This document shows positions 19,187 through 56,343 of a stretch of 64,000 nt of DNA, piece after piece. The stretch lies in NCBI RefSeq assembly GCF_056712565.1, contig NZ_CM160072.1; one strand, 5' to 3'. Under the pieces are notes generated by a model. It made no database searches, was not told the DNA's origin, and saw only the letters and a program-made list of their open reading frames with translations. Position 1 is the stretch's first letter. Every line of letters begins with the position of its first letter. Made by a program: the position numbers and the translations under genes.

Positions 19187-19234
19187 ATAAAACTCCCGAA
19201 TATATTTTGTTAACCTTGCGGAGATGCCAGGGTA

Positions 19235-19810: not shown

Positions 19811-19820
19811 AAGCGGACTC

Positions 19821-35858: not shown

Positions 35859-37159
35859 CACAATTAGTTTTCCATCATAAACATCACCATTTGCCGCCAG
35901 CAAGTGAGAAAGTGTTACCTGTTCAGCTATATGGATTAAGTGGTCAGAGGCGCGGAGATATATCTGTTATCGGGAATCCTGCGATTGATCGGATCAGACG
36001 TTTGGGAGTACAGCTTCCAGCTAAGGTCATGGATTTTCTGAGTGTTGCATTAGCAGTAACTGCAGCAGATACTTTCGTTCAGCGTGAAAGTTCCGAGGAT
36101 GGTTGGACCCGCCAATTGTCGTTACGACTCCCCCTTCATGAACCATCCAGATGGATTAGTCTAAAGAAAGAACTTGAGAGTGCTTTGCATTTTCTTAGTG
36201 GAGACATCTGGGATTTCGAATTTTGTGACGATGGTTATGCACCGCCAGAGCCTTATAGCCAGCATTCAAGGCATCGTCTGATTAAGCTAAAAGGGCTTGA
36301 CTGTGTCAGCTTATTTTCAGGAGGTCTGGATTCAGCTATTGGTGCAATAGATCTTCTGGCTGCAGGGCGCGCTCCACTTTTGGTTAGTCATGCTTATAAG
36401 GGGGACAAGTCTCGTCAAGATCAGATCGCTGAAAAATTAAGTGGCCAATTTTCGCGCTTTGAGATTAATGCTGACCCACACATTTATCAAGGCGTGACTG
36501 ATATTACGATGCGAACTCGTAGCCTCAATTTTCTTGCCTTTGCGGCCGTAGGTGCTTGTGCCGTACAAGAGATATCTCAACAAGAAAAGATTGATTTGTT
36601 CGTACCTGAAAATGGATTTATCTCATTAAATGCACCACTTACTCCACGGCGGATAGGTTCGCTGAGCACACGAACAACACATCCACATTTTATTACGAGC
36701 ATACAAAAGATCTTTGATGCGCTCGGTATTTCTTGTCAAATAATCAATCCATATCAGTTTAAGACAAAAGGAAAAATGATCTCCGAATGTTCAAATAAGC
36801 AGCTCTTATCTAAAATTGTGGAAAGTACAGTATCCTGCAGTCATTGGAAACGAATGGGGCAGCAATGTGGGGTATGTATACCGTGTATCATTCGACGAGC
36901 ATCACTTCATGCAGGGGGAATTAGTAGAGATGTTGAATATATTTTCCAGTCCTTAGCTAAAGTAATGAATGAAATAGATCGCAGGGACGACCTGATCGCC
37001 CTTAGGATTGCGATCACGCAGAAATCGACTTTGAAAATAGGTACATGGATTGCCAAAAGTGGCCCTTTGCCTACGGCAGAATTTGATAATTTCAAGCAAG
37101 TATTTAAGGATGGCCTAGATGAGGTTGAAAGCTATTTACTGAGTGAGAACATAGTATGA
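35840..37159 (+). CDS. qatC: QueC-like PP-loop ATPase (QatC-like)
   Basis: PP-loop SGGLDS (LFSGGLDSAIGAIDLL) in a 439 aa protein larger than housekeeping QueC; overlaps both neighbours. Confidence 0.8.
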   Translation: MGGIPVTQLVFHHKHHHLPPASEKVLPVQLYGLSGQRRGDISVIGNPAIDRIRRLGVQLPAKVMDFLSVALAVTAADTFVQRESSEDGWTRQLSLRLPLHEPSRWISLKKELESALHFLSGDIWDFEFCDDGYAPPEPYSQHSRHRLIKLKGLDCVSLFSGGLDSAIGAIDLLAAGRAPLLVSHAYKGDKSRQDQIAEKLSGQFSRFEINADPHIYQGVTDITMRTRSLNFLAFAAVGACAVQEISQQEKIDLFVPENGFISLNAPLTPRRIGSLSTRTTHPHFITSIQKIFDALGISCQIINPYQFKTKGKMISECSNKQLLSKIVESTVSCSHWKRMGQQCGVCIPCIIRRASLHAGGISRDVEYIFQSLAKVMNEIDRRDDLIALRIAITQKSTLKIGTWIAKSGPLPTAEFDNFKQVFKDGLDEVESYLLSENIV

Positions 37160-37881
37160 GCATCGATATGCACTGTCATCTAGACTTATATCCTCGGCCA
37201 GACCTCGTGGCTGAAGAAAGTAAGCGTCGAGGGACTTATATTCTGTCGGTGACAACAACACCTAAAGCATGGCATGGTACTTCTTTATTGGCTAAAGAAA
37301 GTCAACGAATCCGAACTGCTCTTGGGCTACATCCTCAAATCGCGCATCAAAGATCGCATGAGTTAGACCTGTTTGATTCATTGCTTTCGGAAACTAAGTA
37401 TGTAGGGGAAATAGGGCTTGATGGTGGACAGGGATTTAAAGAACATTGGGATATTCAATTGAAAGTGTTCCGACACATTCTCAACAGTGTAAATCGGGCT
37501 GGTGGCAAGATTATGACTATCCATAGTCGGGGAAGTGCATCAGCGGTGCTTGATGAGATTGAAAATATCGATGGGGTGGCAATATTGCATTGGTTCACTG
37601 GAACACCTAAGCAGCTTGAAAGGGCAATTGATTTAGGATGCTGGTTCTCAGTGGGGCCTGCTATGCTCGATACAATAAAGGGTAAGGCCTTAGTTTTGAA
37701 AATACCCAAATCACGCATTCTTACAGAAACAGATGGGCCATTTGCTAAGTTTCGTAATGACCCACTAATGCCATGGGATAGTGGGATTGCAGAGAAACAG
37801 TTAGCCGCATTATGGGGGATTAGTCAGATGGAGGTTAATGCTCAGCTAGTTGATAATTTTAAGGTATTATGTACATCATAA
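37156..37881 (+). CDS. qatD: TatD-family metal-dependent nuclease (QatD-like)
   Basis: N-terminal HCHLD motif and downstream His/Asp/Glu pattern of the TatD TIM-barrel hydrolase; ATGA overlap with qatC. Confidence 0.85.
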   Translation: MSIDMHCHLDLYPRPDLVAEESKRRGTYILSVTTTPKAWHGTSLLAKESQRIRTALGLHPQIAHQRSHELDLFDSLLSETKYVGEIGLDGGQGFKEHWDIQLKVFRHILNSVNRAGGKIMTIHSRGSASAVLDEIENIDGVAILHWFTGTPKQLERAIDLGCWFSVGPAMLDTIKGKALVLKIPKSRILTETDGPFAKFRNDPLMPWDSGIAEKQLAALWGISQMEVNAQLVDNFKVLCTS

Positions 37882-38433: not shown

Positions 38434-39009
38434 TCAGGGCGTTTTCCAGATGACAGCTATAGTAAAAATGATCGCCAGACTGGCGAGAAAGCAGAGCGAA
38501 AGCGGGATTTTGTCCTTCAGTGTCAGGTTCAGCTCTTCTTCAACCCATGCTTTTTCAAATTCACAGTAAAATTTATAATGTGCGTACCAGTTACTTCCGA
38601 AGATCTGTTTGCTGATGACCGTGCCGTAAAACCGGGACATGATAGCGTCGATGGATTGTTGTGTACGCTGATAGTCAAAGTTTGCATCGCTTTTTACGTT
38701 GCGGTAGATGACTTCAAGTTCATTAAAAATTTTGGTCTGCTCAATCCCCGCACTTTCATAACTCTGCTTTTCCGAGTCATAAAACTGAATGTACATTGTA
38801 GCAACACCAAATATAATTAATATCGCGGAAATGACGTTTGTGGCCAGCTCAGGAATAAAAAGGGCGAACACACCGACAGCAAGAGAAATAAAGCTAATCC
38901 AACCGGATGCCTTACAAATCAGATCATAGGTGGCAAAGTTTTTCTTAGCGCCAAATCCAACGTTATAACCATGTCGGGCGATTAATTTCAGCATCTCTGA
39001 TTGCGTCAT
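38434..39009 (-). CDS. SLATT-like two-transmembrane effector protein
   Basis: 191 aa with two central hydrophobic helices (WISFISLAVGVFALFIPELATNVISAILIIFGVATMYI) and a C-terminal hydrophobic segment; 8 nt downstream of the SMODS gene. Confidence 0.6.
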   Translation of the reverse strand: MTQSEMLKLIARHGYNVGFGAKKNFATYDLICKASGWISFISLAVGVFALFIPELATNVISAILIIFGVATMYIQFYDSEKQSYESAGIEQTKIFNELEVIYRNVKSDANFDYQRTQQSIDAIMSRFYGTVISKQIFGSNWYAHYKFYCEFEKAWVEEELNLTLKDKIPLSLCFLASLAIIFTIAVIWKTP

Positions 39010-39016
39010 AAAAACC

Positions 39017-40345
39017 TCAGCTTATGGGAACTTCAATCTGGGCCCGGGCAACCACAACCTCATTTTTTATCACATAGCATTCTACCATGTGATCTCCGCG
39101 GAAGTCGGTAGTTTCTTTCTTCGTACAGTAGCCGCCGTCCGAAACGATTTGTCCCCGGATCATATTTCTTCTGCGTGCTTCGTCACCCACGTTCAGTACC
39201 TTCCACATAACGGTGTAGGGTTCCTCTGCCTCCATTTCTGTCAAGTCTGCCCGGAAAAGGAGAGATTTTCGAGCGGAGAGGCGGAATCTTCTGATAAGCA
39301 TCTCCCTCAGGCTTCTGGGAGGGAAACCATCCTGGGTTACGGTACAGTCAAGGTTGAGTGAGTACCTGATATCCACCGGATATTTATCCTCTATAAACTC
39401 TTCGGTATCGGTCCAGGGAACAGCATCTGCCGCATGCGATTCCAGACCAAGACGGGCTTCCATAATACCCACTTTACGTCTGGGGAAGGCTCGTCCGAAC
39501 ACTTTGCGCCAGCGGTCATTTTCACTGGCAGCCCCCTCAGCGTCTAAGGCATCACAACATAATTCATACGCGTGTTTCGCTGCCCGGCCAAACCAGGGAG
39601 ATTTAACACGTACATGCTGATTACTGCCTAACGCGAGATACCTTTCCTTTCTCTCCTCATTTGACAGATATTCAAAAAAGTCTCTGGCGAGGGCTCCCAG
39701 GCTGCCATTTCCGGTATTGTCATAATCTGATGTTGATGAAAGAAAGCGATACGCTAGTGTGTCTATCAGTAAGCCACCCATATTGACGCCATGCAGGTTC
39801 TTCCAGGCTCTGATCATTTTACACAGCTTGCGCAGATTATTGGATTTATCTCGCGAAAATGCGGTCATGGCCGCCTTTTCGTGAAGAGGTTTTGTAATGC
39901 GCCATGCTCCTCCATTATAGCTTTCAGGGAATTTAAAGCTGTCATCATCCTGTCTGAATACAGGTTGAACCTCGACATAAAAGTTTTTAAAGATGATCTG
40001 AACAACCAGTCTGTCCTTTTTCACAGTCTGGTCAGGATATTCTTCCGCCAGAATGTTTCTGACATCTGTAAGCAATGCAGACTGACCATTATCCTTACGG
40101 TTATAATATTCATACTGATTGGGGGGCATAATATAAAGCATATCCAGATCGGATATGCCTTTTATTGCGGTATGTCTGCCTACTGACCCCACTTTCAAGC
40201 GGTTTGCTACCCGGGAACTCGTTCCTCTGAACGCAAGATTTAATGACTTGGTTATTTTTCGATAGTGATAGCTGATCTTTTTTGCCTGTTTGAGGTCAAG
40301 ATTCAAATTTTCAAGAAATTCGCTGAACAATTCCCTGTGGCTCAT
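39017..40345 (-). CDS. SMODS-type (cGAS/DncV-like superfamily) nucleotidyltransferase with C-terminal sensor-like domain
   Basis: Pol-beta NTase motif GS-x10-DLD (GSVGRHTAIKGISDLDMLYI) in a 442 aa protein. Confidence 0.75.
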   Translation of the reverse strand: MSHRELFSEFLENLNLDLKQAKKISYHYRKITKSLNLAFRGTSSRVANRLKVGSVGRHTAIKGISDLDMLYIMPPNQYEYYNRKDNGQSALLTDVRNILAEEYPDQTVKKDRLVVQIIFKNFYVEVQPVFRQDDDSFKFPESYNGGAWRITKPLHEKAAMTAFSRDKSNNLRKLCKMIRAWKNLHGVNMGGLLIDTLAYRFLSSTSDYDNTGNGSLGALARDFFEYLSNEERKERYLALGSNQHVRVKSPWFGRAAKHAYELCCDALDAEGAASENDRWRKVFGRAFPRRKVGIMEARLGLESHAADAVPWTDTEEFIEDKYPVDIRYSLNLDCTVTQDGFPPRSLREMLIRRFRLSARKSLLFRADLTEMEAEEPYTVMWKVLNVGDEARRRNMIRGQIVSDGGYCTKKETTDFRGDHMVECYVIKNEVVVARAQIEVPIS

Positions 40346-42862: not shown

Positions 42863-43627
42863 GGTAGTGCATCCAATTAGTAGAATATGTGTTTTTCGAT
42901 AAATGCTCCGATCACTTTTTCGTGGATCTCAACTGAGCGTGAGAAGCAGATTGTTTACGAGCCAACCGCTTAATGTGGGTGCGTAGCGTCAGATTATTAC
43001 GCTCAATGCGTTGGGTGAATATTTTGCCGGTCAGATGCTTATTCTTCGGCACCACCCGGCCATAGCTGTCCCAGTCATCGCTGGTGAGCATGCCGATGTT
43101 GAAGGGTGTAAGCAGTGCCAGTAGCTCCCGGCACGTTTGATCGGTTCGGGGACCAAAAGTGTAGGCCAGTACACCGCCTGTTTTGGTGTTGTACGCGTAC
43201 CAGAGCCAGTGTAGCCGGGCTTTACTGCCAACGTAGCTCCATTGCTCATCAAGCTCGCAGATAAGCGCCACATCAGCATGGGCAACAGGCGAAGAAGTTA
43301 TTTGCGTTGGTGCGAGTTTTTTAAAGTCCGGATGATGGTGTTAATACCAATTTTCAGTGTCCTGGCGGTATCGCGAACCCCGGCACCATTAAAGGCCATT
43401 TCAGTGATCATCTCTTTCATACCCGGCTTACGTGCTTGATAAGTATAAGTGAGCTGAAACACACGGTGGCAGTCACGGCAGCGAAATCTGTCACGGCCTT
43501 TAGGGTTCTGACCATGGCGGTAAACCTGAGCTGACTGACAACGGGGACAATGAATATTAACGCTGGCCATGAGATAACCTCAAAAGCCCGTATTATACAT
43601 CAGATTCAACCAATTAGAGGCATCACC
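42863..43627 (-). mobile_element. Diverged IS1-family element (InsA 43298..43570, InsB 42912..43271)
   Basis: InsA-like zinc-finger protein (CPRCQS...CRDCHRVF) and InsB-like ORF; IS1-like terminal repeats GGTGATGCC.../...GGTAGTGCATCC. Confidence 0.8.
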
Positions 43628-43822: not shown

Positions 43823-45292
43823 ATGCATATCGATTCGACTGAAAAAAATAATAAACAAAAGTTGGGCTTGCTTGCGCTAACATCCATTGTCGTGAGCTCG
43901 ATGATCGGCAGCGGCGTTGACGGACTCCCCCAGAATATGGCGGAGAATTCTGCCGTGGGCCCGGTGGCGATAGCATGGATAGTCTGTGGTATCGGCATGT
44001 TTTTCATCTCCAGAACTTTTATCGTGCTGTCAAACATTAGACCTGATCTCCAGTCAGGAGTTTATATGTATGCCCGGGAAGGGTTCGGCCGATTTACGGC
44101 ATTTAACGTCGCCTGGGGCTACTGGCTGATGACTATATTCAGCAACGTCGCCTTTGCCATTATGGTGATGGATACGCTGAATTATTTCTTACCAGGTGAT
44201 TTCAAGGGAGGGAACAATATTCCTTCCGTTATCGGTGCCTCTTTGCTGATATGGGGATTCAACTTTTTAGTCCTCTCCGGTACCCGCATTGCCGGGTCGA
44301 TTAACATCGTCGGCACGCTGGCCAAACTGATCCCGCTGGTGGCCTTTATTATTATTCTCATGCTGTTTATGAAGTACACCACGTTCGCAGATAACGTCTG
44401 GGGGCACAGCGCGAGTAAGGCCAGTCAGGACCTAGGCTCTATTTTCTCACAGGTAACTTCACCGCTTAGCGTGGCACTCTGGAGCTTCATCGGCGTTGAG
44501 GGGGCTGTCGCTCTTTCCGGTCGGGCCAAAAATAAACGCGACGTGGGTAAAGCCACATTCATTGGCTTCGTTGTATCACTGATTATCTGTCTGCTGGTCT
44601 CCATCCTGCCGTTTGGCGTGCTGACTCAACATGAGCTCAGCGCAATTCCAACCCCATCCACCGCCGGTATTCTGAAGATTGTTGTCGGTGAATGGGGGAA
44701 GATTATGATTATCTTGGGGGTGCTGATTTCGGTGCTTACCAGCTGGCTGGCGTGGACCATCATCTGCGCCGAACTGCCTATGGTGGCCGCGCAGAACGGC
44801 ACATTCCCGAAACCGTTCAGCAAAAAAAATGTGAAGGGTTCGGCCTCGGTTTCGCTTTATATAAGCAGTGCGTTTATGCAAATCGTCGTACTTCTGGTCT
44901 ACTTTTCTAACGATGCCTGGCTTGCAATGCTGGCTATCTCTACCCTGACCGTTTTACCTGCGTATTTAATGACCACGGCATACCTGTTTAAACTATGTAT
45001 TAGCGGCGAGTATGCCAGCTATACCACGAATCACAGCCGCAGCGCCGCGCTGGTCAGCAGTATTATCGGCTTTGTATTCTGCCTGTTTATGTTCTACGCC
45101 AGTGAAATCAAATATCTGGCGATGGTTCCGGTGCTGCTTACGCTGGGCGTGCCCCTGTTTATCTGGGCAAGAAAAAAAGACGATCGCGCAGATAAAATAT
45201 TTACGCTACGCGAACTGGCATTTTTTATTTTACTGCTGGTCCTCGACATCATTGTTTTTATTCTACTGCATTATAAAACGATACATTTTTAG
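43823..45292 (+). CDS. APC-superfamily basic amino acid/polyamine antiporter (ArcD/PotE/CadB-like), copy 1
   Basis: 489 aa, 12-13 TM profile, conserved N-terminal block (LGLLALTSIVVSSMIGSGV) shared with copy 2. Confidence 0.75.
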   Translation: MHIDSTEKNNKQKLGLLALTSIVVSSMIGSGVDGLPQNMAENSAVGPVAIAWIVCGIGMFFISRTFIVLSNIRPDLQSGVYMYAREGFGRFTAFNVAWGYWLMTIFSNVAFAIMVMDTLNYFLPGDFKGGNNIPSVIGASLLIWGFNFLVLSGTRIAGSINIVGTLAKLIPLVAFIIILMLFMKYTTFADNVWGHSASKASQDLGSIFSQVTSPLSVALWSFIGVEGAVALSGRAKNKRDVGKATFIGFVVSLIICLLVSILPFGVLTQHELSAIPTPSTAGILKIVVGEWGKIMIILGVLISVLTSWLAWTIICAELPMVAAQNGTFPKPFSKKNVKGSASVSLYISSAFMQIVVLLVYFSNDAWLAMLAISTLTVLPAYLMTTAYLFKLCISGEYASYTTNHSRSAALVSSIIGFVFCLFMFYASEIKYLAMVPVLLTLGVPLFIWARKKDDRADKIFTLRELAFFILLLVLDIIVFILLHYKTIHF

Positions 45293-45396
45293 TCCAGATT
45301 AATTCACAGCAAGTTAAGGTGACGATAATGTCTGTTTCTTGGGCATGACATCCTCACAGTTAAATACTATCTGAACAGTAACCGTGGAGACACCTA

Positions 45397-47766
45397 ATGA
45401 AATTTAACCACAATCTTTTATTTATTTCCTCACAATATCTTGATGGCGACAACCCTTCGCAGCAGGTACTGGAAGAGCTTCAAACCGAACTCGCGGAACG
45501 CGGTTTTAAAATTCATATCACGCACCAGATCTCTGATGGATTAAAAATCATCGAAAAAAGCCCCCAATACAGCGGGATTGGTTTTTACTGGGAGCCAGAC
45601 AATCCGACCTTTGCAGAAGAGCTACAGCACTTTATCAGCATATTCCGCAAAAGAAATGCCACGACGCCGCTGATAATTTTCTCAGAACAGAATATTACCG
45701 ATCGTATCCCACTCGACGTCTTAAAAGAGGTCAGCGAATATGTTTATCTGTTCTCTGAATCCGCAGCCTTCACTGCCAATCGACTGTACTCCTTAGTCCA
45801 CCGCTATGCGGATAAGCTTCTTCCTCCCTACTTTAAAACCCTTAAGGACTTTACCGAGGACGGTGACTATTACTGGGACTGCCCGGGGCATATGGGGGGA
45901 ATGGCCTATCTGAAACATCCTGTTGGCATTGAGTTCATTAACTTCTTTGGCGAAAACATGATGCGCGCTGATATTGGCGTGGCTACCGCGGAGATGGGGG
46001 ATTATCTGATCCACGCCGGACCGCCTAAAAAATCGGAAGAAATTGCGGCCCGACTGTTTGGCTCTGATTGGACCTTCTACGGTGTTTCCGGCTCATCGGG
46101 GTCGAACCGTATTGTGGCCCAGGCTGCGGTTGGCGCAGATGAAATTGCCATTATTGACCGAAATTGCCACAAGTCACTTAATCATGGCCTGACCTTGTCT
46201 CAGGCAAGGCCGGTTTACCTGAAACCTACCCGCAACGCGTGGGGGCTGATTGGGCCTATCCCGACCGGGCGCCTGAAGAAGGCCAGTATTGATGCGCTGG
46301 TGGCAAACAGCCGACTGGCATCTGGTGCGGTCAGCCAGTCCCCGTCCTACGCCGTGGTAACCAACTGCACCTATGATGGCTTCTGTTATAACGTGAACGA
46401 TGTAGTCAGACACCTGGGTGAAAGCGCACCGCGCATCCATTTTGATGAAGCATGGTATGCCTATGCGCGTTTCCATCCGCTATACCAGAGTCGCTATGCA
46501 ATGGACGCGGAGGAAACGCCAAATCGTCCAACCCTATTCGCCGTACAGTCCACCCATAAAATGCTGCCCTCACTCTCCATGGCCTCAATGATTCATGTGA
46601 AGAAAAGCGATCGCGCGCCGCTTAATTTCGATGACTTTAACGATGCCTTTATGATGCACGGCACGACCTCACCCTACTACCCGATCATTGCATCAATTGA
46701 TGTGGCAGTAAGCATGATGGAGGGTGAATCCGGTTATTCGCTTGTGCAGGAGTCAATTGAAGAAGCGATTGCCTTCCGTAAAGCCGTGGTCAGCGTCAAG
46801 CGCCAGCTCCAGGAGCAGGAAGGTGGTGACGCCTGGTTCTTCGATGTGCTTCAGCCAACCGAAGTGCAGGACAGCGATTCTGGGCAGCGATACAGTTTTG
46901 AAGAGGCACCCGTATCGCTGCTGAGCCACAGCGCCGACTGCTGGTCGCTGCGCTCCGGTGAGCGCTGGCACGGTTTTGCCGATGATGATCTGGTCGAAAC
47001 CAACAGTATGCTCGATCCAGTAAAAGTGACCCTGACTTGTCCAGGGATCGGCCCGAAGGGAGAATACCAGAAAAACGGTATTCCGGGATATTTGCTGACC
47101 CGTTTTCTCGATGACCGTCGCATTGAAATTGCCCGTACTGGTGACTACACCGTGCTGATCCTGTTCTCCGTCGGCATCACCAAAGGCAAATGGGGAACTC
47201 TGATTGAAAGCCTGCTGGCCTTTAAAAAGCATTACGACAATGACGATCTGGCCACAGATGCTATCCCGTCGCTGAAAGCGCATTCTCCACACTACGACAC
47301 GCTAACCCTCAAGGAGCTATGTCAGATAATGCATGAAAAAATGGATGAGCTGGAGCTGATGTCGCATATCAACGACGCGGTAAACACCGATCCGGAACCA
47401 GTTATGACCCCGGCAGAAGCCTATCAGAAAGTCGTACGCTACAAAACCGAGCATATCCGGCTGGATGATTTTAGCGGCAGAATTGCCGCCAGCATGCTCG
47501 TCCCATATCCCCCAGGCATTCCTGTACTGATGCCGGGCGAACGGATGCCGCAAGGTAACAAGGGCATTATTGGCTATCTGCGCGCCCTGCAGGAATTCGA
47601 TAAGCAATTCCCAGGTTTTGAACATGAGATCCAGGGCGTTAACGTCGATGAAAACGGGGACTTCTGGGTCAGAGCGATTGTGGAAGAAGAACGCGATGGG
47701 CAGTCGCTACCCGGCCACATAACCTTTAAACGCCAGGTCTCTGGTATTAAAAAGGGCCGCCAGTAG
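45397..47766 (+). CDS. Fold-I PLP-dependent Orn/Lys/Arg decarboxylase (inducible AdiA/SpeF/CadA type), substrate unassigned
   Basis: 789 aa; collinear with AdiA-type decarboxylases (YWDCPGHMGG, DRNCHKS, STHKML PLP-lysine region, PYPPGIPVLMPGE). Confidence 0.8.
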   Translation: MKFNHNLLFISSQYLDGDNPSQQVLEELQTELAERGFKIHITHQISDGLKIIEKSPQYSGIGFYWEPDNPTFAEELQHFISIFRKRNATTPLIIFSEQNITDRIPLDVLKEVSEYVYLFSESAAFTANRLYSLVHRYADKLLPPYFKTLKDFTEDGDYYWDCPGHMGGMAYLKHPVGIEFINFFGENMMRADIGVATAEMGDYLIHAGPPKKSEEIAARLFGSDWTFYGVSGSSGSNRIVAQAAVGADEIAIIDRNCHKSLNHGLTLSQARPVYLKPTRNAWGLIGPIPTGRLKKASIDALVANSRLASGAVSQSPSYAVVTNCTYDGFCYNVNDVVRHLGESAPRIHFDEAWYAYARFHPLYQSRYAMDAEETPNRPTLFAVQSTHKMLPSLSMASMIHVKKSDRAPLNFDDFNDAFMMHGTTSPYYPIIASIDVAVSMMEGESGYSLVQESIEEAIAFRKAVVSVKRQLQEQEGGDAWFFDVLQPTEVQDSDSGQRYSFEEAPVSLLSHSADCWSLRSGERWHGFADDDLVETNSMLDPVKVTLTCPGIGPKGEYQKNGIPGYLLTRFLDDRRIEIARTGDYTVLILFSVGITKGKWGTLIESLLAFKKHYDNDDLATDAIPSLKAHSPHYDTLTLKELCQIMHEKMDELELMSHINDAVNTDPEPVMTPAEAYQKVVRYKTEHIRLDDFSGRIAASMLVPYPPGIPVLMPGERMPQGNKGIIGYLRALQEFDKQFPGFEHEIQGVNVDENGDFWVRAIVEEERDGQSLPGHITFKRQVSGIKKGRQ

Positions 47767-47840
47767 GCGGGGGAAAGAACAATACCGTCGGATCGCCTGC
47801 AATCCGACGGCAATATTATAGAATAGCTGAGGGAAACGTT

Positions 47841-49340
47841 ATGGCAGAGCAATCTTCAGATGTAAAAAATAGTGACAATAGCGCCGGAGGACATAAGCTG
47901 GGGCTTATATCCCTCATCGCTATTGTCGTTAGCTCCATGCTGGGAGGCGGCGTTTTCAGTCTGCCGCAAAACACGGCGGCCTCTTCTGCACTAGGGCCAG
48001 TAATCATTGCATGGATTATTGCCGGGATCGGTATTTATTTTATCGCAAACTCCTTTCGCGTACTATCAGATCTGCGCCCGGACCTTCAGGCTGGAGTGTA
48101 TATGTATGCCCAGGAAGGTTTTGGTTCCTTTATTGGCTTTAACGTCGCCTGGGGCTACTGGCTGATGACCGCATTTGGCAACGTTGCCTTTGCGGTAATT
48201 TTAATGGATGCTTTTAATCAGTTTATGCCGGGGGTTTTTACGGATGGTAATAATCTGAACTCCATTATCTGCGGCTCAGTGCTGATCTGGGGCTATAATT
48301 TTCTTGTTCTGTCCGGGACGAAAGTGGCCGGATTTGTTAACACCTTGGGAACCATCGCCAAGCTCGTCCCTCTGATCCTATTCGTATTACTGCTGGGTGT
48401 GCTGATCGATTATTCGGACCTGTTTAAAAACTTTTGGGGAGAATCACCCGCGATCCTCAGTGGCAACGGAAATGACGCCGCACCAGTATCGCTGCTGTCT
48501 CAGATTCTGGCACCGATGACCGTAACGCTCTGGGCCTTTATTGGCGTCGAGGGAGCGGTTGTTCTATCCGGACGTGCCAAAAATAAACAGGACGTAGGGA
48601 AAGCCACACTGATCGGCTTTCTGCTGGCGCTAATTATTTATATGTTAATGTCCATTCTGCCGTTCGGTGTAATGCCTCAGGCAGAACTAGCGCAGGTCAG
48701 TAACCCCTCTACCGCAGGCGTGCTCGCCCACGTTGTCGGTCAGTGGGGCGACTGGCTGATGAGCGCGGGGCTGATTATTTCTGTTCTGGCCGGCTGGCTT
48801 GCCTGGACCATGCTATGCGCTGAAATACCGATGGTCGCAGGACAGAAAGGCGCTTTCCCGCGCGCGTTTGCCCGAACGAACAGTAAACAGGCGGCCAATG
48901 TGTCACTGTGGGTTAGTAGCTTTGTGATGCAGGCGGCCATGTTACTTGTTTATTTTTCAAATAATGCTTGGACCACCATGTATAATATCAGTGCGCTGAT
49001 GGTTGTTCCGGCCTATATTACCACCACGCTGTATCTGACCAGTATTTGCAGAAACGGAAAATATGATCAGTATGCAAAAAAAGGCCGCAGGCTGGCTTTG
49101 TCCAGCGGTGTTTTAGGCTCGCTATTCTGTCTGTTTATTCTTTACGCCAGCCAGATTGAGTATGTTGCATTAATTCCTATCCTGTTGACCTGTGGTCTGC
49201 CGGTCTTTATCTGGTCAAGAAAAGAAAAAAATGATGGTCAGCCGATATTTACCAAAAAAGAGCTGATTTATCTGATTATGCTGTTGCTGTGCGATATTAT
49301 CGTCGTTGCCCTGTTTATTGGTGGATATTTAAAGGTATAA
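47841..49340 (+). CDS. APC-superfamily antiporter, copy 2 (paralog of 43823..45292)
   Basis: 499 aa, collinear with copy 1 along the whole length. Confidence 0.75.
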   Translation: MAEQSSDVKNSDNSAGGHKLGLISLIAIVVSSMLGGGVFSLPQNTAASSALGPVIIAWIIAGIGIYFIANSFRVLSDLRPDLQAGVYMYAQEGFGSFIGFNVAWGYWLMTAFGNVAFAVILMDAFNQFMPGVFTDGNNLNSIICGSVLIWGYNFLVLSGTKVAGFVNTLGTIAKLVPLILFVLLLGVLIDYSDLFKNFWGESPAILSGNGNDAAPVSLLSQILAPMTVTLWAFIGVEGAVVLSGRAKNKQDVGKATLIGFLLALIIYMLMSILPFGVMPQAELAQVSNPSTAGVLAHVVGQWGDWLMSAGLIISVLAGWLAWTMLCAEIPMVAGQKGAFPRAFARTNSKQAANVSLWVSSFVMQAAMLLVYFSNNAWTTMYNISALMVVPAYITTTLYLTSICRNGKYDQYAKKGRRLALSSGVLGSLFCLFILYASQIEYVALIPILLTCGLPVFIWSRKEKNDGQPIFTKKELIYLIMLLLCDIIVVALFIGGYLKV

Positions 49341-49427
49341 GTCCGAGTTAAATCTTTACTGGGCTAGTAATGCCGCCTTTTAAACAAGAAGGGCGGCAAT
49401 CTTACTGAAATTAGTATGCTGCAAATC

Positions 49428-50195
49428 GGTAATGCTGCCAACTTACTGATTTAGTGTATGATGGTGATTTTAAGGTGCTTGCGTGGCTTCCATTTCCATC
49501 AGATGTCCTTCCTGCTCCGCTACTGAAGGCGTGGTGCGTAACGGCAAAAGCACTGCCGGACATCAGCGCTATCTCTGCTCTCATTGCCGTAAAACATGGC
49601 AACTGCAGTTCACTTACACCGCTTCTCAACCCGGTACGCACCAGAAAATCATTGATATGGCCATGAATGGCGTTGGATGCCGGGCAACTGCCCGCATTAT
49701 GGGCGTTGGCCTCAACACGATTTTACGTCACTTAAAAAACTCAGGCCGCAGTCGGTAACCTCGCGCATACAGCCGGGCAGTGACGTCATCGTCTGCGCGG
49801 AAATGGGCGAACAGTGGGGCTATGTCGGGGCTAAATCGCGCCAGCGCTGGCTGTTTTACGCGTATGACAGGCTCCGGAAGACGGTTGTTGCGCACGTATT
49901 CGGTGAACGCACTATGGCGACGCTGGGGCGTCTTATGAGCCTGCTGTCACCCTTTGACGTGGTGATATGGATGACGGATGGCTGGCCGCTGTATGAATCC
50001 CGCCTGAAGGGAAAGCTGCACGTAATCAGCAAGCGATATACGCAGCGAATTGAGCGGCATAACCTGAATCTGAGGCAGCACCTGGCACGGCTGGGACGGA
50101 AGTCGCTGTCGTTCTCAAAATCGGTGGAGCTGCATGACAAAGTCATCGGGCATTATCTGAACATAAAACACTATCAATAAGTTGGAGTCATTACC
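49428..50195 (+). mobile_element. IS1, complete 768 bp copy (insA 49483..49758, insB 49677..50180)
   Basis: Canonical InsA ([21 protein letters not shown]...) and InsB; terminal repeats GGTAATGCTGCCAACTTACTGAT... and ...GTTGGAGTCATTACC. Confidence 0.9.
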
Positions 50196-50646
50196 GACAT
50201 TGTCAAGATGAACAGCATGCATTGTAACAGTCTGCAGTTTATGTTCTCCGTGGATAATTATTCTTATTTCATGGTGATTTTTGTTATATTTTAAAATGCA
50301 TATCTCACCATTTAGTTTTTTATATCACAAAAACATAGTGATGCAATCATACACACCTGCCTCTATCGTACAGAGAAAACGGGCAATTATTTGTATTATT
50401 CCTTCATAACGACTTCAGTATACAGGATGACCGCAACCACGCTCCTTCTCCTGCCCGGGCGAAGTGCCTGGTTCAGACAATTACATTAACTGGCTGAAAT
50501 TTTCGACGCGGTACAAGCCTCCCTGCTTTGAAAGGTGGCCTGGCGCTGCAATTTTTTACTTTTGTTTTTGTATCCGGAAAAACACATCTGCAAGAATCAT
50601 TATTCTCTTGCCTGAAGCTATCCAGCATCCTCAGATATTTCGCACT

Positions 50647-51198
50647 TTATGAGCTGGCATCAGAAAAATGTGCCAGTAATTTTTTATTAATGACTTCAAA
50701 CAGTTCCTGTTCATCATGAGTCAGATAATCCCAGATTTCTTTCAGATACATGCTTTGTGCAAGAGTGAGCCTCTGAATAAAAAACATACCTTCAGATGTC
50801 AGACTGATTTTTTTAGCACGGCGATCCTCCCTGCTATCCGTCCTTTTTACATATCCGGCTTTTTCTAAAAAATCTGTAATGCGGGTAATATTAGTTCTGG
50901 TAAACTGAAGTTTCTGGCTTATCTCTGAAGGTGACAGACAATGGTTCTCCGCTGCGAATAATGTGGTGAGAACCATATATGCTGAGTGATTTATTCCATA
51001 CGCCCCCAGAAATTCAGATATATTATCCTGCATTCTTTTATTTGTGCGAATACAGAGCTGCATCAACAAATGTTCCCGAAAGGGATATGCGGGGTCTTTG
51101 TTTTTTTGGTGTCTGATTATTTTTTCTAATGTGTCTGTGTTATTCATTTCATTATTCTCCATATTACTGAAACACACTGTCTGTGTACAAGCGCGCAT
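50647..51198 (-). CDS. MarR-family transcriptional regulator, PapX/SfaX/FocX-like (probable start at the MENNEMNN ATG near 51162)
   Basis: Winged-helix MarR core (LSPSEISQKLQFTRTNITRITDFLEKAGYVKR...DRRAKKISLT); resemblance to fimbrial-operon-associated PapX-type regulators is from memory. Confidence 0.55.
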   Translation of the reverse strand: MRACTQTVCFSNMENNEMNNTDTLEKIIRHQKNKDPAYPFREHLLMQLCIRTNKRMQDNISEFLGAYGINHSAYMVLTTLFAAENHCLSPSEISQKLQFTRTNITRITDFLEKAGYVKRTDSREDRRAKKISLTSEGMFFIQRLTLAQSMYLKEIWDYLTHDEQELFEVINKKLLAHFSDASS

Positions 51199-51364
51199 CA
51201 GTCATCCGGTAAACATCGACTTTCCACTACAATTTATTCCTACCTGATTTCTGTATGACAGAGTAGTCCCGACAGGCAGACGGATAAATTCCCGCAGGTA
51301 AAAGAACATAAATGCTGGCTGCTGACAAGTCTGTGAAAAAGGATTATTGTAGTGGTTCACAAAA

Positions 51365-52171
51365 TCAGGACACCGGAATAACCTGTTTCCACTTTTCTTC
51401 ATGTAAGCAAGGCGGTAAACCATCGTTGTTCGTGTGAGGTCGATAAACGTTGTAATAACCATTAATCCACTGGTTTATATCACGTACCGCATGGATAAAA
51501 TCACCATAACCACCTTTCGGAAGCCATTCATTTTTAAGGCTGCGAAAGACTCTTTCCATCGGCGAATTATCCAGGCCATTCCCTCTGCAACTCATACTTT
51601 GCATTACCCCATAACGCCAGAGTAACTTTCTGTATTTATTGCTTTTATACTGAACACCTTGATCTGAATGAAACAGCAGACGGCCATCACGTGATCGTGT
51701 TTCCAGTGCATTACGCAAAGCCCTACACACCAACTCAGCATCAGCGGTTAATGAGAGGGCTGAACCGGTAATCCGCCGTGAATATAAATCAACAACGAGC
51801 GCGAGCTAACACCATTTGTCATGCAGGCGAATAAAACTGATGTCGCCGCACCAGACGCGGTCTGGTGCGGCGGGGTGAAATTGCCGGTTCAGTAAATTTG
51901 GCAATGGCGGACTTTTGTCTTCGTTGACCCGGTAGTGATGTTTAACCATCTGTCGACTTGTCAGCCCGCATTCCCGCATCAGTCGTCGTGCCAGCCACCG
52001 GCCTGCATCAACGCTACTCTGGCGCAACATCTGACTGATTGCACGGCTACCGGCTGCGCCACGACTGAGAGCATGGAAAGCCCTCACCCGACTTCGTAAG
52101 TCAATTCTTTGCACATTAACAGGACGCGTCACCTGCGCGTAATAAACGCTACGGTTAGGTAATGACTCCAA
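51365..52171 (-). pseudogene. IS3-family transposase OrfB relic, frameshifted and truncated by the adjacent IS1
   Basis: Two ORFs (51806..52171 HTH region; 51365..51733 rve C-terminus [10 protein letters not shown]...) in different frames; upstream ORF abuts the IS1 end. Confidence 0.65.
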
Positions 52172-52925
52172 CTTATTGATAGTGTTTTATGTTCAGATAA
52201 TGCCCGATGACTTTGTCATGCAGCTCCACCGATTTTGAGAACGACAGCGACTTCCGTCCCAGCCGTGCCAGGTGCTGCCTCAGATTCAGGTTATGCCGCT
52301 CAATTCGCTGCGTATATCGCTTGCTGATTACGTGCAGCTTTCCCTTCAGGCGGGATTCATACAGCGGCCAGCCATCCGTCATCCATATCACCACGTCAAA
52401 GGGTGACAGCAGGCTCATAAGACGCCCCAGCGTCGCCATAGTGCGTTCACCGAATACGTGCGCAACAACCGTCTTCCGGAGCCTGTCATACGCGTAAAAC
52501 AGCCAGCGCTGGCGCGATTTAGCCCCGACATAGCCCCACTGTTCGCCCATTTCCGCGCAGACGATGACGTCACTGCCCGGCTGTATGCGCGAGGTTACCG
52601 ACTGCGGCCTGAGTTTTTTAAGTGACGTAAAATCGTGTTGAGGCCAACGCCCATAATGCGGGCAGTTGCCCGGCATCCAACGCCATTCATGGCCATATCA
52701 ATGATTTTCTGGTGCGTACCGGGTTGAGAAGCGGTGTAAGTGAACTGCAGTTGCCATGTTTTACGGCAATGAGAGCAGAGATAGCGCTGATGTCCGGCAG
52801 TGCTTTTGCCGTTACGCACCACGCCTTCAGTAGCGGAGCAGGAAGGACATCTGATGGAAATGGAAGCCACGCAAGCACCTTAAAATCACCATCATACACT
52901 AAATCAGTAAGTTGGCAGCATCACC
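52157..52925 (-). mobile_element. IS1, second canonical copy, inverted relative to 49428..50195 (insA 52595..52870, insB 52173..52676)
   Basis: InsA/InsB proteins identical to the first copy; ends read to within ~2 bp. Confidence 0.9.
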
Positions 52926-53399
52926 CAATCTGCTGACAGACGAAGATAATGAACCCGTTATGGTTTTTAACGGAGAGAGGAATGTACTGGCAGACAGTCT
53001 GAAACCACAGCCTCTGATTCTTCCGGTCAAGGGAAAATAAGCGTAATGTTCATCACCAGATTATGTACGATGAGTTTTCCACTGTTTATAGCAATTATCT
53101 TGCTAATAACCAGACAGGAGTAACCAGACCAACCGAAAACACCGGGAAGGTGATTACCCGCTGGCAGAGGAAATCCGGTTTTTTTTGATGTCAGCCATAA
53201 CGTGTTTGACAATAAAGCATCATGAAAGGGTGTTAATGAGTCCATGGGATAATTCATAAAAATAATTTACTGTGTTATCCTTTTCAAAAGAAATATTCAG
53301 AAGATAACCCCTGGCTGACAACCAGGGGAAGGGAGCATTAACAGTGTTATTATTGGTGAATAAATTATTACTTGTGTGCAGGATACACTAATGCAATAT

Positions 53400-54473
53400 C
53401 TACTGATACTGTATGCCAGTATGTTTCATGCCTGCCGCTGAAAACGGCAATATCCAGGGCCAGACATATTCACCATTCATATTTCTGCATTTCTGTACAA
53501 TTTTCTCAGAAAGCGTCTCATCAATTCTTTCACGCAACTTCTCCTGCTGTCTTAAAATACTTTCGCATATTTCGAAATCATCTTCCTGCATCAGCATTTC
53601 GGCGCATTTAATGATTTCTGCCCGTTCATGCAGCACAGAGGAATGATTATAGAGCCAGTTTACAAACAGCAATGCTTCCGGATATTGCCCCCATAACGGG
53701 TGGTATGTGGCATAATAATCTTCGGCAGTATCCGGACCGCCTGAAAAGTTATGCCATACAGCAAGTGGAAATGGATGCAGATTTCCGCACAGTATTTCTG
53801 CGATGTAAGTATTTGCCGCAAAGCCGCGACGAAATGCAGTTGCAGCTTTTACCAGTTCCCCATTAAGAAAATGCAGAAGGCCGAGTTCATACCAGTAAGG
53901 TGAAAATTCATCTGCATGTTCCTGCAGTATATGGCGTGCCTGTTCATGAGCGCCAGTGCGTAACAGTTCCGGTCCCAGTAGCCAGCGTGCACCATGATTA
54001 TCTTCGGGATTGTAATCCAGTATTTTTTCAATGAGCATGATGGCATCCTGATGACGCCGTAAATGTGCATTTGCCAGGATTGCCGCATAGAGGGCACGAA
54101 GAAAAGGTCGGTTGTCAGGATGTATCCAGATGATTCTGCCACTGAAACCTTCAGGGATAAGACGATTGCCAACTGCCAGCCCTTTAAGGGCAGCATTCAG
54201 CGCCTTACGCGGGGCATTCTGCTCCAGAAATACGTATGCCAAGTGAGCGTGTACATCAATAAAGTCATTCTCCTGTCGGGCAAGGCGCCTGAGTTTGTTG
54301 ATGTAACTTGTTTCGCTGATTTCATCCGCATCGTATGCATCAATCAGTTCTTCAAACTCATCCAGCAACGAGCCAAACCAGGTTTCCGGAAATATGAAAC
54401 AGCCCTGGTTATCGTTCACTTCAAAGCGTAATTTGCCAGTCATATTCTGAACCTGTAAAAAAGGATGGACCAT
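53400..54473 (-). CDS. Hypothetical island protein, 357 aa
   Basis: ORF only; helical repeat-like composition, no catalytic motif recognised. Confidence 0.4.
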   Translation of the reverse strand: MVHPFLQVQNMTGKLRFEVNDNQGCFIFPETWFGSLLDEFEELIDAYDADEISETSYINKLRRLARQENDFIDVHAHLAYVFLEQNAPRKALNAALKGLAVGNRLIPEGFSGRIIWIHPDNRPFLRALYAAILANAHLRRHQDAIMLIEKILDYNPEDNHGARWLLGPELLRTGAHEQARHILQEHADEFSPYWYELGLLHFLNGELVKAATAFRRGFAANTYIAEILCGNLHPFPLAVWHNFSGGPDTAEDYYATYHPLWGQYPEALLFVNWLYNHSSVLHERAEIIKCAEMLMQEDDFEICESILRQQEKLRERIDETLSEKIVQKCRNMNGEYVWPWILPFSAAGMKHTGIQYQ

Positions 54474-54698
54474 AACCTGCAGGCTATAAAAATTGTGATG
54501 CCTGGCATCGGTGTCCTTTTATTGTCCGGGATTAACGTTGCCCATGATAATACAGTGAATTCTGTTCTGTGGTAAGACGTTGAGTTATTGAATGAGAACC
54601 TCAGCCTGGCTGATGGTTCCGCCGGCATAAAAAAGAAATTGATTGAGGCGGGTGCTCTTCCCCTTAAGAGGAAGAGCATGTGTGTAAATGGCGTTCAG

Positions 54699-55964
54699 TC
54701 ACCTTTTCAGTGGATTGTTAACTTTTGCATATTCAAACGGACTGATACACTCCTCCCTGTTTGCATCCAGAAAATCTGCCCACCATTGCAGCATAAGCCG
54801 ACGTTCTTCCAGATGTTCTGCTTTATGAATATACGCGGCACGTACTCCGTTGCGCTCCTGATGACTCATCTGACGTTCAACCGCATCTCTTGACCATAAG
54901 CCGGATTCAATCAATGCACTGCACGCCATCGCCCGGAATCCATGGCCACAGACTTCCTTGGTTGTGTCATACCCCATCACTCTGAGGGCCTTATTTACGG
55001 TATTTTCACTGATTGGTTTACGTGGGTCGTGTGCTCCCGTAAAGATCAGACCATTTTCACCTGCCCATGTCTGAAGTTCTGCCAGTATGGCTACAGCCTG
55101 TTGGCTGAGTGGCACAAGATGTGGTGTTCGCATCTTGGAGCCCCGGTATGAAAATTTTACGCCTGGCAGAGGTTCGCGTTCGGCTGGAATAGTCCACATG
55201 GCATTGTCAATATCAATTTCAGACCAGCGGGCATATCTGAGTTCACTGGAACGAATAAAAACCAGTAAATTCAGCATAACTGCCAGTCGGGTGACAGGCT
55301 GGCCTTTATAACCGTCAATACGCGACAGAAGTTCAGGCAGGCGTGAAAGATCCAGAGCAGGGCGATGCTGGCGTTTTACCGTGGTCAATGCACCAGCCAT
55401 ATCCAGAGCCGGGTTATATCTGATGATGCCAGACTGTACGGCATAACGCATTACAGCAGATATTCTTTGCTGCAGACGACTGGCGATTTCATAAATTTGT
55501 TTAACTTCTGCAGCACGAACAGGGATAAGCAGATCCGGGGTACTGAGTGTTGTGATATCCCGGTTGCCGATAAAGGGGAAAACGTGAGTCTCGAGGCTTT
55601 TGAGTACTTTATCGCTGTGTGATTGTGCCCATTGTTTATTACTGGCATGCCAGCGTCGTGCAATATGTTCAAAAGAGAGCTGTAAATCAGGGACTACTTT
55701 TTTAGCTCTTTTCTGTTCGCAAGGGTCAACCCCCTCCGAAATCAGTTTTCGGGCCTCATCCCGTTTTGTACGAGCTTCGGAGAGAGAAACTTCCGGATAC
55801 ACACCAAGTGCCAGGGTTTTCTCCTTACCCAGAATACGATAACGGAGACGCCAGTAACGGGAACCATTAGGATGTACCAGCAGGAACATGCCAGCCCCGT
55901 CAGTGAGTTTATAAGCCTTGTCAGTGGGCTTTGCAGCCCGGATTTTTGCGTCAGTCAGTGCCAT
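54699..55964 (-). CDS. int: P4-type tyrosine integrase (site-specific recombinase), adjacent to tRNA-Phe
   Basis: 421 aa; N-terminal MALTDAKIRAAKPTDKAYKLTDGAGMFLLVHPNGSRYWRLRYR arm-binding signature and C-terminal catalytic region (HGFRAMACS... with R/H/Y pattern). Confidence 0.85.
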   Translation of the reverse strand: MALTDAKIRAAKPTDKAYKLTDGAGMFLLVHPNGSRYWRLRYRILGKEKTLALGVYPEVSLSEARTKRDEARKLISEGVDPCEQKRAKKVVPDLQLSFEHIARRWHASNKQWAQSHSDKVLKSLETHVFPFIGNRDITTLSTPDLLIPVRAAEVKQIYEIASRLQQRISAVMRYAVQSGIIRYNPALDMAGALTTVKRQHRPALDLSRLPELLSRIDGYKGQPVTRLAVMLNLLVFIRSSELRYARWSEIDIDNAMWTIPAEREPLPGVKFSYRGSKMRTPHLVPLSQQAVAILAELQTWAGENGLIFTGAHDPRKPISENTVNKALRVMGYDTTKEVCGHGFRAMACSALIESGLWSRDAVERQMSHQERNGVRAAYIHKAEHLEERRLMLQWWADFLDANREECISPFEYAKVNNPLKR

Positions 55965-56161
55965 AGTTCAGCCTTCTGAATGCGTTAAAGAGGGTACAAA
56001 TTCTGTCGAACTGGGGTATACCCGCAATTATACCCACACAATGGGGTTGATGTGGGGGGAATCTGGTTGAGTTCGGTAGAATTGATTTGGAGGCAGAACG
56101 CTTAAATTGTGGCGTTCTGAAACGAAAAACGGACCTCCGTGGAGGTCCGTTGATATGAACT

Positions 56162-56237
56162 TGGTGCCCGGACTCGGAATCGAACCAAGGACACGGGGAT
56201 TTTCAATCCCCTGCTCTACCGACTGAGCTATCCGGGC
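56162..56237 (-). tRNA. pheU: tRNA-Phe (anticodon GAA)
   Basis: Reverse complement reads GCCCGGATAGCTCAGTCGGTAGAGCAGGGGATTGAAAATCCCCGTGTCCTTGGTTCGATTCCGAGTCCGGGCACCA; pheU rather than pheV inferred from the yjdC-dsbD-cutA-dcuA-aspA flank. Confidence 0.95.
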
Positions 56238-56343
56238 AACGGGGCGCATTAAACCGTAATCTGCACATCTCGTCAACCTAATTTCAGTAAAAGCGATTCA
56301 ACTGCTTAAGATTGCGGCAAATCGCTTCTTTTCTGTGTTTCTG

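Follow-up and report, generated by a model that had tools for sequence, protein, structure and literature searches.

The segment enclosed by two inverted IS1 copies in the 64,000-nucleotide stretch of DNA analysed here (the window) is probably what decay has left of one end of a P-fimbrial (pap) pathogenicity-island module, which would have passed through a history of four events and retained an orphan papX whose product would dampen motility. The locus is the pheU island of ST95-type extraintestinal E. coli. Over 4.4 kb the sequence matches the chromosomes of S88, APEC O1 and many further ExPEC strains at 100% identity, and their annotation shows two IS1 copies, a regulator of the MarR family and a pseudogene of IS3 type. 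Six SNPs and one indel of 162 bp distinguish the window from S88. The features of the region are as follows.

43823..49427, plus strand: flanking module at IS1-L (antiporter, Orn/Lys/Arg decarboxylase, antiporter)
49428..50195, plus strand: IS1-L, complete 768-bp IS1
49483-49758, plus strand: insA of IS1-L
49677-50180, plus strand: insB frame of IS1-L
near 49731: A6C frameshift motif of IS1-L
50196..50646, minus strand: DNA 3' of papX
50590-50611: terminator-like hairpin 3' of papX
50647..51198, minus strand: papX, intact 183-codon ORF for a MarR-type repressor of flhDC
51199..51347, minus strand: native papG-papX intergenic DNA, 149 bp upstream of the papX ATG
51348..52157, minus strand: IS3-family relic, 810 bp, its intact right end (...TGAACCACTACA) abutting the papX leader
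51365-51733, minus strand: IS3-transposase fragment 1 (IS3 model positions 259-365 of 369)
51806-52171, minus strand: IS3-transposase fragment 2 (IS3 model positions 113-232 of 369), running into IS1-R
52158..52925, minus strand: IS1-R, complete 768-bp IS1, inverted relative to IS1-L
52926..53040, plus strand: last 115 bp of the phosphoethanolamine transferase gene, which lies whole between hyp and the pap operon in intact islands
53027..56237, minus strand: tRNA-proximal backbone, made up of the next four features
53027-53257: hypothetical ORF (hyp)
53400-54473: TPR protein
54699-55964: P4-type integrase
56162-56237: tRNA-Phe (pheU)

The IS1 pair and the IS3 relic

IS1 is typically 768 bp long and ends in inverted repeats of about 23 bp that match imperfectly (GGTGATGCTGCCAACTTACTGAT...), and a simple insertion leaves a 9-bp target duplication on its flanks. 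A repeat finder returned two arms of 768 nt in inverted orientation, 49428-50195 and 52158-52925, separated by 1,962 nt, and direct comparison gave 767 of 768 identical bases, which rules out a chance match. The sole mismatch is the fourth base of the left terminal repeat, where IS1-L reads GGTAATG and IS1-R reads GGTGATG. The InsA (91 aa) and InsB-frame (167 aa) ORFs are identical between the copies and match the NCBIfam model transpos_IS1 (NF033558) at positions 1-81 and 75-199, the frameshift motif TTAAAAAAC (A6C, at which a -1 frameshift joins insA and insB') is found, and the terminal repeats were picked up as a 25-nt pair that is 84% complementary. The preliminary description, which had reported two inverted IS1 copies with identical InsA and InsB, was right in this respect, although the second copy starts at 52158, one base from the approximate 52157 given there; the roughly 2 kb it had placed between them proves to be 1,962 bp carrying one intact MarR gene and an IS3 relic cut by IS1-R.

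The 9-bp flanks are CTGCAAATC/GACATTGTC at IS1-L and CTACGGTTA/CAATCTGCT at IS1-R. No 9-bp target duplication was found in direct or reverse-complement pairings of the kinds expected for simple insertion, composite insertion, inversion exchange or duplicative inversion, which points to later rearrangement rather than simple insertion and leaves the assignment to IS1 unaffected. Missing target duplications, deletions that end exactly at IS1 termini and the presence of both segment orientations in natural isolates are features that the locus shares with IS1-mediated rearrangements. An "IS1 family" pseudogene at about 42877-43570, considered as a third recombination partner, has no blastn similarity to either copy and was rejected. 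An Rfam scan of 49000-53500 gave zero matches at E <= 0.1.

Elements of the IS3 family have TG...CA termini and encode a DDE (rve) transposase whose OrfA and OrfB parts are joined through a frameshift. The element here is a relic rather than a functional family member: rve and HTH_21 domains are present, OrfB is in two fragments, and OrfA is missing, having apparently been removed by IS1-R along with the left end (about 440 bp in all). Its right terminus ends in ...CA at 51348. Since homology with intact pap, sfa and foc loci ends at 51347 in the alignment (all matches to intact operons end at query position 1152) and independent copies of the IS3-type element start matching exactly at 51348, the IS3 junction is a clean one. 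Another copy of the relic's IS carries a 1,210-bp transposase pseudogene.

Identity of the regulator and descent of the locus

The 183-aa ORF carries a Pfam MarR domain (PF01047, E = 1.6e-12, residues 69-128). Its protein is identical to PapX of UTI89, encoded at the end of an intact papG-III operon, at 182 of 183 positions, to that of EC958 at 182/183 (the difference being A66V), to that of CFT073 at 175/183 (eight residues differ) and to an SfaX/FocX protein at 173/183, the window allele having A66 and N85; SfaX and FocX are close relatives of PapX, the "X" regulator at the 3' end of pap operons. K54 and R127, which we take to be residues functionally required in PapX, are both present. Naming rests on pairwise identity, as HMMs cannot discriminate here: NCBIfam has no PapX-specific model, and its best match, MprA, reaches 120.7 bits against a cut-off of 157 and gives an equal sub-threshold score to bona fide PapX and SfaX proteins. 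That MprA is the best model, and that the PGAP name of this allele goes no further than "MarR family transcriptional regulator", is what could be said for an unrelated MprA- or SlyA-type protein without a fimbrial link. Such an identity is refuted by the 99% identity to a PapX encoded beside papG and by flanking DNA homologous to the papG-papX intergenic region, and we give it practically no chance. The resemblance to PapX proposed earlier, in preference to MprA, is thus borne out, and the regulator is by these comparisons PapX itself and not merely PapX-like.

As in CFT073 and UTI89, the gene encodes 183 residues with a MarR winged helix and has a matching 149-bp leader and 3' flank. Within the 3' flank, 50429-50646 is common to intact pap operons and 50196-50428 matches DNA downstream of sfaX in DLL7555. 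Unlike in those strains, papX here is not attached to a fimbrial operon, no fimbrial genes lying inside the IS1 pair or adjoining it, and the DNA upstream of -149 is the IS3 end instead of papG-papX intergenic sequence. At the DNA level the allele is 94-97% identical to any sampled intact operon, so its direct ancestral operon is absent from the sample. Some of the genomes that match at 100% have just one place of match, which would fit strains with no other X gene. The papX of the window is an orphan member of the X family by descent, and its relatives show the loss of the operon.

The intact arrangement from which the locus probably descended is found in strain Combat2C1, in the order tRNA-Phe, int, TPR, hyp, phosphoethanolamine transferase, OMP, papX, papG to papA, papB, papI. 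Window positions 52926-56285 correspond to 18600-15241 of this locus (L010), where the transferase gene occupies 18486-19988, and the hyp-transferase junction is uninterrupted in 477 genomes. In EC958 (ST131) and Ecol_448, the order is IS1, papX, IS1 and then truncated papA, papB and papI, with the window's hyp|IS1 and IS1|papX junctions, and their arrangement represents an intermediate form. The orphan of the ST131 GI-pheV island (EC958_3259) has the same IS3|papX junction as well and an inverted IS1 pair around papX. In contrast to the window, which keeps 810 bp of IS3 and in which IS1 abuts the decarboxylase/antiporter module, it retains just 107 bp of the IS3 relic before its second IS1 (the cut corresponds to window position 51454), and this IS1 adjoins truncated papA-papB-papI; in addition, the ST131 island is at pheV, its IS1A-type copies are 97.4% identical to those of the window, and its papX segment is inverted relative to the window's. 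The hyp-side IS1 junction with G at base 4 is common to the window, EC958, Ecol_448, AR_0011 and MS8345. One detail goes beyond the usual pattern of IS1-mediated rearrangement: the IS1 at conserved junctions differs between lineages (97.4% and ~92% identity), which implies IS1 gene conversion or replacement.

Relative to int, papX is reversed in the window compared with Combat2C1. Both orientations occur, the window's in 176 complete genomes and the flipped segment in 90, and in MS8345, which is flipped, each of the 8 genes between the integrase and the last antiporter, both included, is annotated with the protein accession that it has in S88. The base-4 difference keeps to the outer flank in both orientations, which places the recombination inside IS1. 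The window arrangement is accordingly the derived form, an IS1 x IS1 inversion of the ancestral one; the polymorphism itself is observed, and the mechanism is what we infer from it.

The order of events, the deletion sizes and the recombination mechanism that follow are our reading of the structure, the relatives and the polymorphism. Starting from the order tRNA-Phe, integrase, TPR protein, hyp, phosphoethanolamine transferase, outer-membrane protein, papX, papG...papA, papB and papI, an IS3-family element would have entered the DNA upstream of papX, at a distance of 149 bp from the start codon. An IS1 would then have replaced about 4 kb, from the 3' end of the transferase gene to DNA downstream of papX. 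A second, inverted IS1 would have cut the IS3 element with loss of the pap structural genes, and what remained would have become joined to a decarboxylase/antiporter module like that of the CFT073 selC island. Finally, homologous recombination between the inverted IS1 copies could have flipped the 1,962-bp segment into the window orientation. The decarboxylase/antiporter module is context outside the pap remnant. It is carried by the CFT073 selC island too, and the antiporter|IS1 junction, with A at base 4, is also found there, which makes the pheU island an IS1-joined mosaic. The preliminary description had suggested looking for an intact ancestral arrangement in other genomes, and Combat2C1 supplies it, with the int-TPR-hyp backbone followed by papX-papG...papA-papB-papI. 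Its view of the locus as a fimbrial-operon remnant also agrees with the pap operon, or its truncated genes, in related islands, but the IS1-mediated deletion it proposed was not a single step, the loss having involved an IS3 insertion, a tRNA-side IS1-associated deletion and an IS1 junction to a selC-type module.

Two complete IS1 copies with intact ends around a short cargo, in a unit (IS1-papX-IS3'-IS1) present at both pheU and pheV in several lineages, might instead suggest a Tn9-like composite transposon that brought papX into the island. However, the outer flanks CTGCAAATC and CAATCTGCT differ, without target duplication, and on the hyp side IS1 borders on the 3' end of the very transferase gene that is the neighbour of hyp in intact islands. 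Every occurrence examined lies in one int-TPR-hyp backbone with the same junctions, and both tRNA-Phe genes can serve as integration sites for this backbone. In CFT073 the antiporter|IS1 junction occurs without papX, and papX in the flipped form is collinear with the intact operon, as fits decay in place. Delivery as transposon cargo is therefore very improbable, and decay of a pap module in place remains the preferred reading.

Expression and function of the orphan papX

Everything beyond 149 bp upstream of papX is IS3 element, with the IS3|leader junction at -149/-150, and the native -35 is gone. The papX start site of CFT073 was mapped to an adenosine 144 bp upstream of the ATG (PMC6246914). 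Position -144 in CFT073 is a C, so the published adenosine is not exactly placeable and the extent of promoter loss is approximate; the native proximal papX promoter has been lost at least partly. A consensus scan of the papX strand from the ATG to the IS3 relic found no sigma-70-like site, and no good -35 is seen by eye in the IS3 end. Across the junction itself lies a -10-like hexamer (TACAAT/AATAAT), in place of the native GATAAT. Detached from its operon and with its upstream DNA replaced, papX is no longer co-transcribed with the phase-variable pap genes.

PapX acts as a winged-helix dimer of the MarR type, binding upstream of flhDC and repressing flagellar synthesis. No IS is annotated in the 779 bp between flhD and uspC of S88, and this region includes TTACGGTGAGTTATTTTAACTGTGCGCAA, with its centre near -419, which we take to be the published 29-bp PapX site; a full-text literature search for these letters returned no match. 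Low, phase-independent expression of papX from the remaining leader and the IS3 junction would keep motility damped.

IS1 insertions are strongly polar, which makes read-through from outside unlikely. Together with the exchange of native DNA beyond -149 for an IS3 end and the negative promoter scan, this could mean that papX, deprived of operon transcription and of its own -35, is effectively silent, an inert relic kept only because the deletion is recent. Several observations argue against such a relic. The ORF is intact in the PGAP annotation of every record opened (S88, EC958, Ecol_448, AR_0011, MS8345), about 867 complete genomes have the arrangement, a one-residue difference separates the alleles compared, and the -10-like hexamer spans the junction. 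The EC958 papX region is 99.6% identical to window positions 50196-51454, with the same 230 bp upstream of the ATG, and Tn5 insertions in this orphan gave a strong hypermotility signal (enhanced motility, logFC 8.76; PMC5425062). ST131 strain EC958 is the one strain in which a function of orphan papX with window-type upstream DNA has been shown experimentally. On balance a silent relic seems unlikely, and a papX that still acts on motility is the reading we favour. Whether selection has kept it is a more doubtful matter: we put forward only tentatively that, after the loss of P fimbriae, papX was retained as a stand-alone motility damper freed from pap phase variation and driven by a hybrid promoter of IS3 end and papX leader, in several pandemic ExPEC lineages (ST131, ST95, ST69) and ~16% of complete E. 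coli genomes, its IS1-bounded segment flipping freely without effect.

Significance

An orphan papX between IS1 copies is a common, already annotated island scar and belongs to known biology rather than to a new system. The locus is a tidy example of IS1 deleting, fusing and inverting island modules, and opens no new question. Its practical value lies in annotation and typing: the PGAP label is generic, and papX scored as a marker of P fimbriae in virulence-gene screens would be misread in the ~867 of 5,426 complete genomes that carry it without the operon. For the biology of the organism, the findings suggest that in ST95 strains with this form of the pheU island, flhDC may still be under PapX-type repression that no longer follows the phase variation of the pilus, which has already been indicated for ST131.

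The IS1 pair and the regulator between its arms

The only long inverted pair returned by the repeat finder consists of two IS1 copies whose arms are spaced 1,962 nt apart, within one base of the coordinates in the preliminary description. Compared base by base, the copies agree at 767 of 768 positions, the sole mismatch falling in the left terminal repeat, where base 4 is A in IS1-L, the left copy, and G in IS1-R, the right copy. The 91-aa InsA ORF and 167-aa InsB-frame ORF of each copy both fit the NCBIfam IS1 transposase model, their translations are identical between copies, as had been claimed, and the frameshift motif TTAAAAAAC was found in IS1. A domain search likewise bore out the enclosed content, a MarR regulator and an IS3-family relic running into the second IS1.

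Features of the papX segment and its borders
49428-50195 (+), IS1-L, arm of the inverted pair, 768 nt
50647-51198 (-), MarR-domain ORF, papX, 183 codons
51365-51733 (-), IS3-transposase fragment, positions 259-365 of the 369-position IS3 model
51806-52171 (-), IS3-transposase fragment, model positions 113-232, running into IS1-R
52158-52925 (-), IS1-R, other arm of the inverted pair, 768 nt

NCBIfam holds no PapX model, and its top match to the regulator was MprA, at 120.7 bits against a cut-off of 157 bits. Since genuine PapX and SfaX gave the same sub-cut-off outcome, HMM naming is uninformative here and pairwise identity decides; by that measure the regulator is PapX, 1-10 residues from the X proteins compared, which rules out an unrelated MarR protein. 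Homology at the DNA level, to intact papG-papX and to sfaY-sfaX, starts at 50429 or 50196 and ends at 51347.

X proteins compared with the window protein (source, context, differences)
UTI89 PapX, intact operon, immediately 3' of papG-III, 1 residue (N85S)
ST131 EC958 PapX, orphan flanked by IS1 copies, 1 residue (A66V)
CFT073 PapX, intact papG-II operon, 8 residues
SfaX/FocX (DLL7555), sfa/foc operon, 10 residues

Independent IS3-family copies begin matching at 51348, the base adjoining the end of pap homology, and the relic terminates in ...TGAACCACTACA, which is typical for the family; thus the element keeps an intact right end, 149 bp ahead of the papX start codon. What is left of it spans 810 bp. 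One other copy, which carries a transposase pseudogene of 1,210 bp, suggests a full element of an estimated 1.25 kb or so, of which about 440 bp at the left end is removed by IS1-R.

Genomic setting and ancestral arrangement

The 4.4 kb around the papX unit is 100% identical in many ExPEC chromosomes, including S88, APEC O1, ATCC 11775 and a set of O1/O2:K1 avian strains. Over the whole window, 6 SNPs and a single indel of a 162-bp repeat set it apart from S88; this repeat unit, inside a 1.6-kb hypothetical ORF of S88 and missing from the window at ~32736-33102, is the sole structural difference over 64 kb. The region forms the tRNA-proximal end of the pheU island in S88, with the order tRNA-Phe, P4-type integrase, TPR protein, small hypothetical ORF (hyp), IS1, IS3 pseudogene, 'MarR family regulator', IS1, antiporter, Orn/Lys/Arg decarboxylase and antiporter, and defence genes and the grp microcompartment locus lie farther out. 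The grp locus of the window (~8238-28592, -) is complete from grpA to grpS and specifies a glycyl-radical propanediol microcompartment; in the grpP/grpO gap (~12992-14080) it is interrupted by two adjacent ORFs. These are annotated in S88 as reverse-transcriptase domain proteins and could represent a retron-type reverse transcriptase or a split group II intron. The Qat anti-phage system lies at ~33322-37881 (+), where QatB, QatC and QatD accompany a P-loop NTPase of the KAP family; after it, at ~38434-40345 (-), comes a pair formed by a SLATT-domain protein and a 'nucleotide-binding domain' protein. The CFT073 selC island has the same defence block.

Immediately beyond IS1-R, 104 bp (52926-53029) correspond to the 3' end of a gene for a phosphoethanolamine transferase; in UTI89 this gene is situated ~4 kb downstream of papX. 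The hyp flank of the window was joined to the continuation of this gene in a chimeric query, which found the uninterrupted junction in 477 genomes. An intact pap operon stands on the same backbone at pheV in one of these genomes, Combat2C1, where the complete order is tRNA-Phe, int, TPR, hyp, transferase, OMP, hyp, GTPase fragment, papX, papG-III, papF...papC, papH, papA, papB and papI; the CFT073 pheV island shares this backbone, with hly and IS elements inserted ahead of papX-papG-II...papI. The intermediate form is that of ST131 EC958 and Ecol_448: int, TPR, hyp, IS1(+), papX(-), IS1(-), truncated papA, papB, papI. They share the hyp|IS1, IS1|papX and IS3|papX junctions with the window. The second IS1 in these strains truncates the IS3 relic at a point corresponding to 51454.

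These intact and intermediate relatives uphold the earlier view of a fimbrial-operon remnant. As for the IS1-mediated deletion then proposed, a single adjacent deletion does not explain the structure of the ST95 island. The antiporter|IS1 junction, base-4 A included, also occurs in the CFT073 selC island, where unrelated genes and a paralogous hyp-TPR-int backbone follow IS1; therefore, the pheU island looks like a mosaic in which IS1 links the stump of a pap island with a selC-type module. IS1 at the conserved junctions is 97.4% identical to the window's in ST131 (IS1A) and ~92% in CFT073 selC, while between lineages the papX segment is ~99.6% and the antiporter flank 99.7% identical (hyp side lower, ~98.6% for the stretch including IS1), which implies that the IS1 copies were overwritten by gene conversion or recombination. 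In the adjoining module (43823-49340, +), a 789-aa Orn/Lys/Arg-family decarboxylase has a basic amino acid/polyamine antiporter on each side, an arrangement like that of an acid-resistance module. The module is bordered by IS1-L and by an IS1-family pseudogene (~42877-43570) that is very divergent, and 509 genomes carry it.

Against Combat2C1, window 52926-56285 aligns in reverse and the papX block forward, which places papX in inverted orientation with respect to the integrase; on these alignments the window form is an inversion of the ancestral orientation. AR_0011 and MS8345 share all four junctions, but their 1,962-bp segment has the ancestral orientation (hyp, IS1, papX, the truncated IS3-family element IS3', IS1, antiporter). 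Between MS8345 and S88, the annotated protein accessions are identical for the 8 genes running from the integrase up to and including the last antiporter. In both orientations IS1 base 4 keeps to the outer flank (G at hyp, A at the antiporter), as recombination inside the IS1 copies predicts. MS8345 also carries, on the tRNA side of the integrase (L012 1-6100), a second island module in tandem with the first, with CbtA/YeeU and ParDE toxin-antitoxin genes. The window and hyp-IS1-papX types together make up ~867 genomes (16%).

Arrangements found with junction-spanning queries among 5,426 complete genomes
Window orientation, 176 genomes
Flipped orientation (IS3'-IS1-antiporter), 90 genomes
hyp-IS1-papX link (ST131 and flipped types included), 691 genomes

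Probable expression and function of the orphan papX

The flhD-uspC intergenic region of S88 is 779 bp long with no annotated IS and contains, near -419, TTACGGTGAGTTATTTTAACTGTGCGCAA, which we take to be the PapX operator. PapX represses flhDC and motility and binds a 29-bp palindrome whose centre lies ~410 bp ahead of the start of flhD; transcription of papX occurs along with the pap operon and also from a proximal promoter starting at -144 from the ATG (PMC6246914). That start site is not exactly placeable, as the CFT073 base there is C. For the orphan, transcription with an operon is impossible. Upstream of -149 all DNA is IS3, so the native -35 is lost. A -10-like TACAAT/AATAAT spans the IS3|leader junction, where the native sequence is GATAAT; a consensus scan found no promoter at this junction. 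IS1 is strongly polar and would block read-through from outside. The inversion would be neutral because the papX leader and IS3 relic travel with the gene.

In EC958, TraDIS insertions in papX (EC958_3259) raised motility (logFC 8.76; PMC5425062). This gene is an IS1-flanked orphan; over 50196-51454 its region and the window agree at 99.6% identity, and the 230 bp upstream of the ATG are the same. The suggestion that the orphan could repress motility thus holds for an EC958 orphan of the same descent (PMC5425062), and by analogy may extend to the ST95 allele. In some genomes with a 100% match, the papX segment has a single match place, making the orphan the only X-type regulator in those strains. 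We infer a low level of papX expression, independent of pap phase variation, which would damp flagellar synthesis.

That the orphan is instead an inert relic in ST95 seems improbable, given the enhanced motility of the EC958 insertions and an ORF annotated as intact in each record opened. A composite transposon, IS1-papX-IS3'-IS1, is also unlikely: no target duplication was found in the direct or reverse-complement 9-bp IS1 flank pairings compared, and the arrangement is collinear with that of intact islands.

In summary, the preliminary reading of an orphan papX in an operon remnant was right in substance. All components were already known, the locus being present and annotated in published genomes, and an effect on motility of an orphan papX of the same descent had already been shown (EC958). 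The new details are the replacement of the promoter by IS3, the inversion polymorphism and the apparent IS1-joined mosaic origin, all of which are ordinary IS biology.
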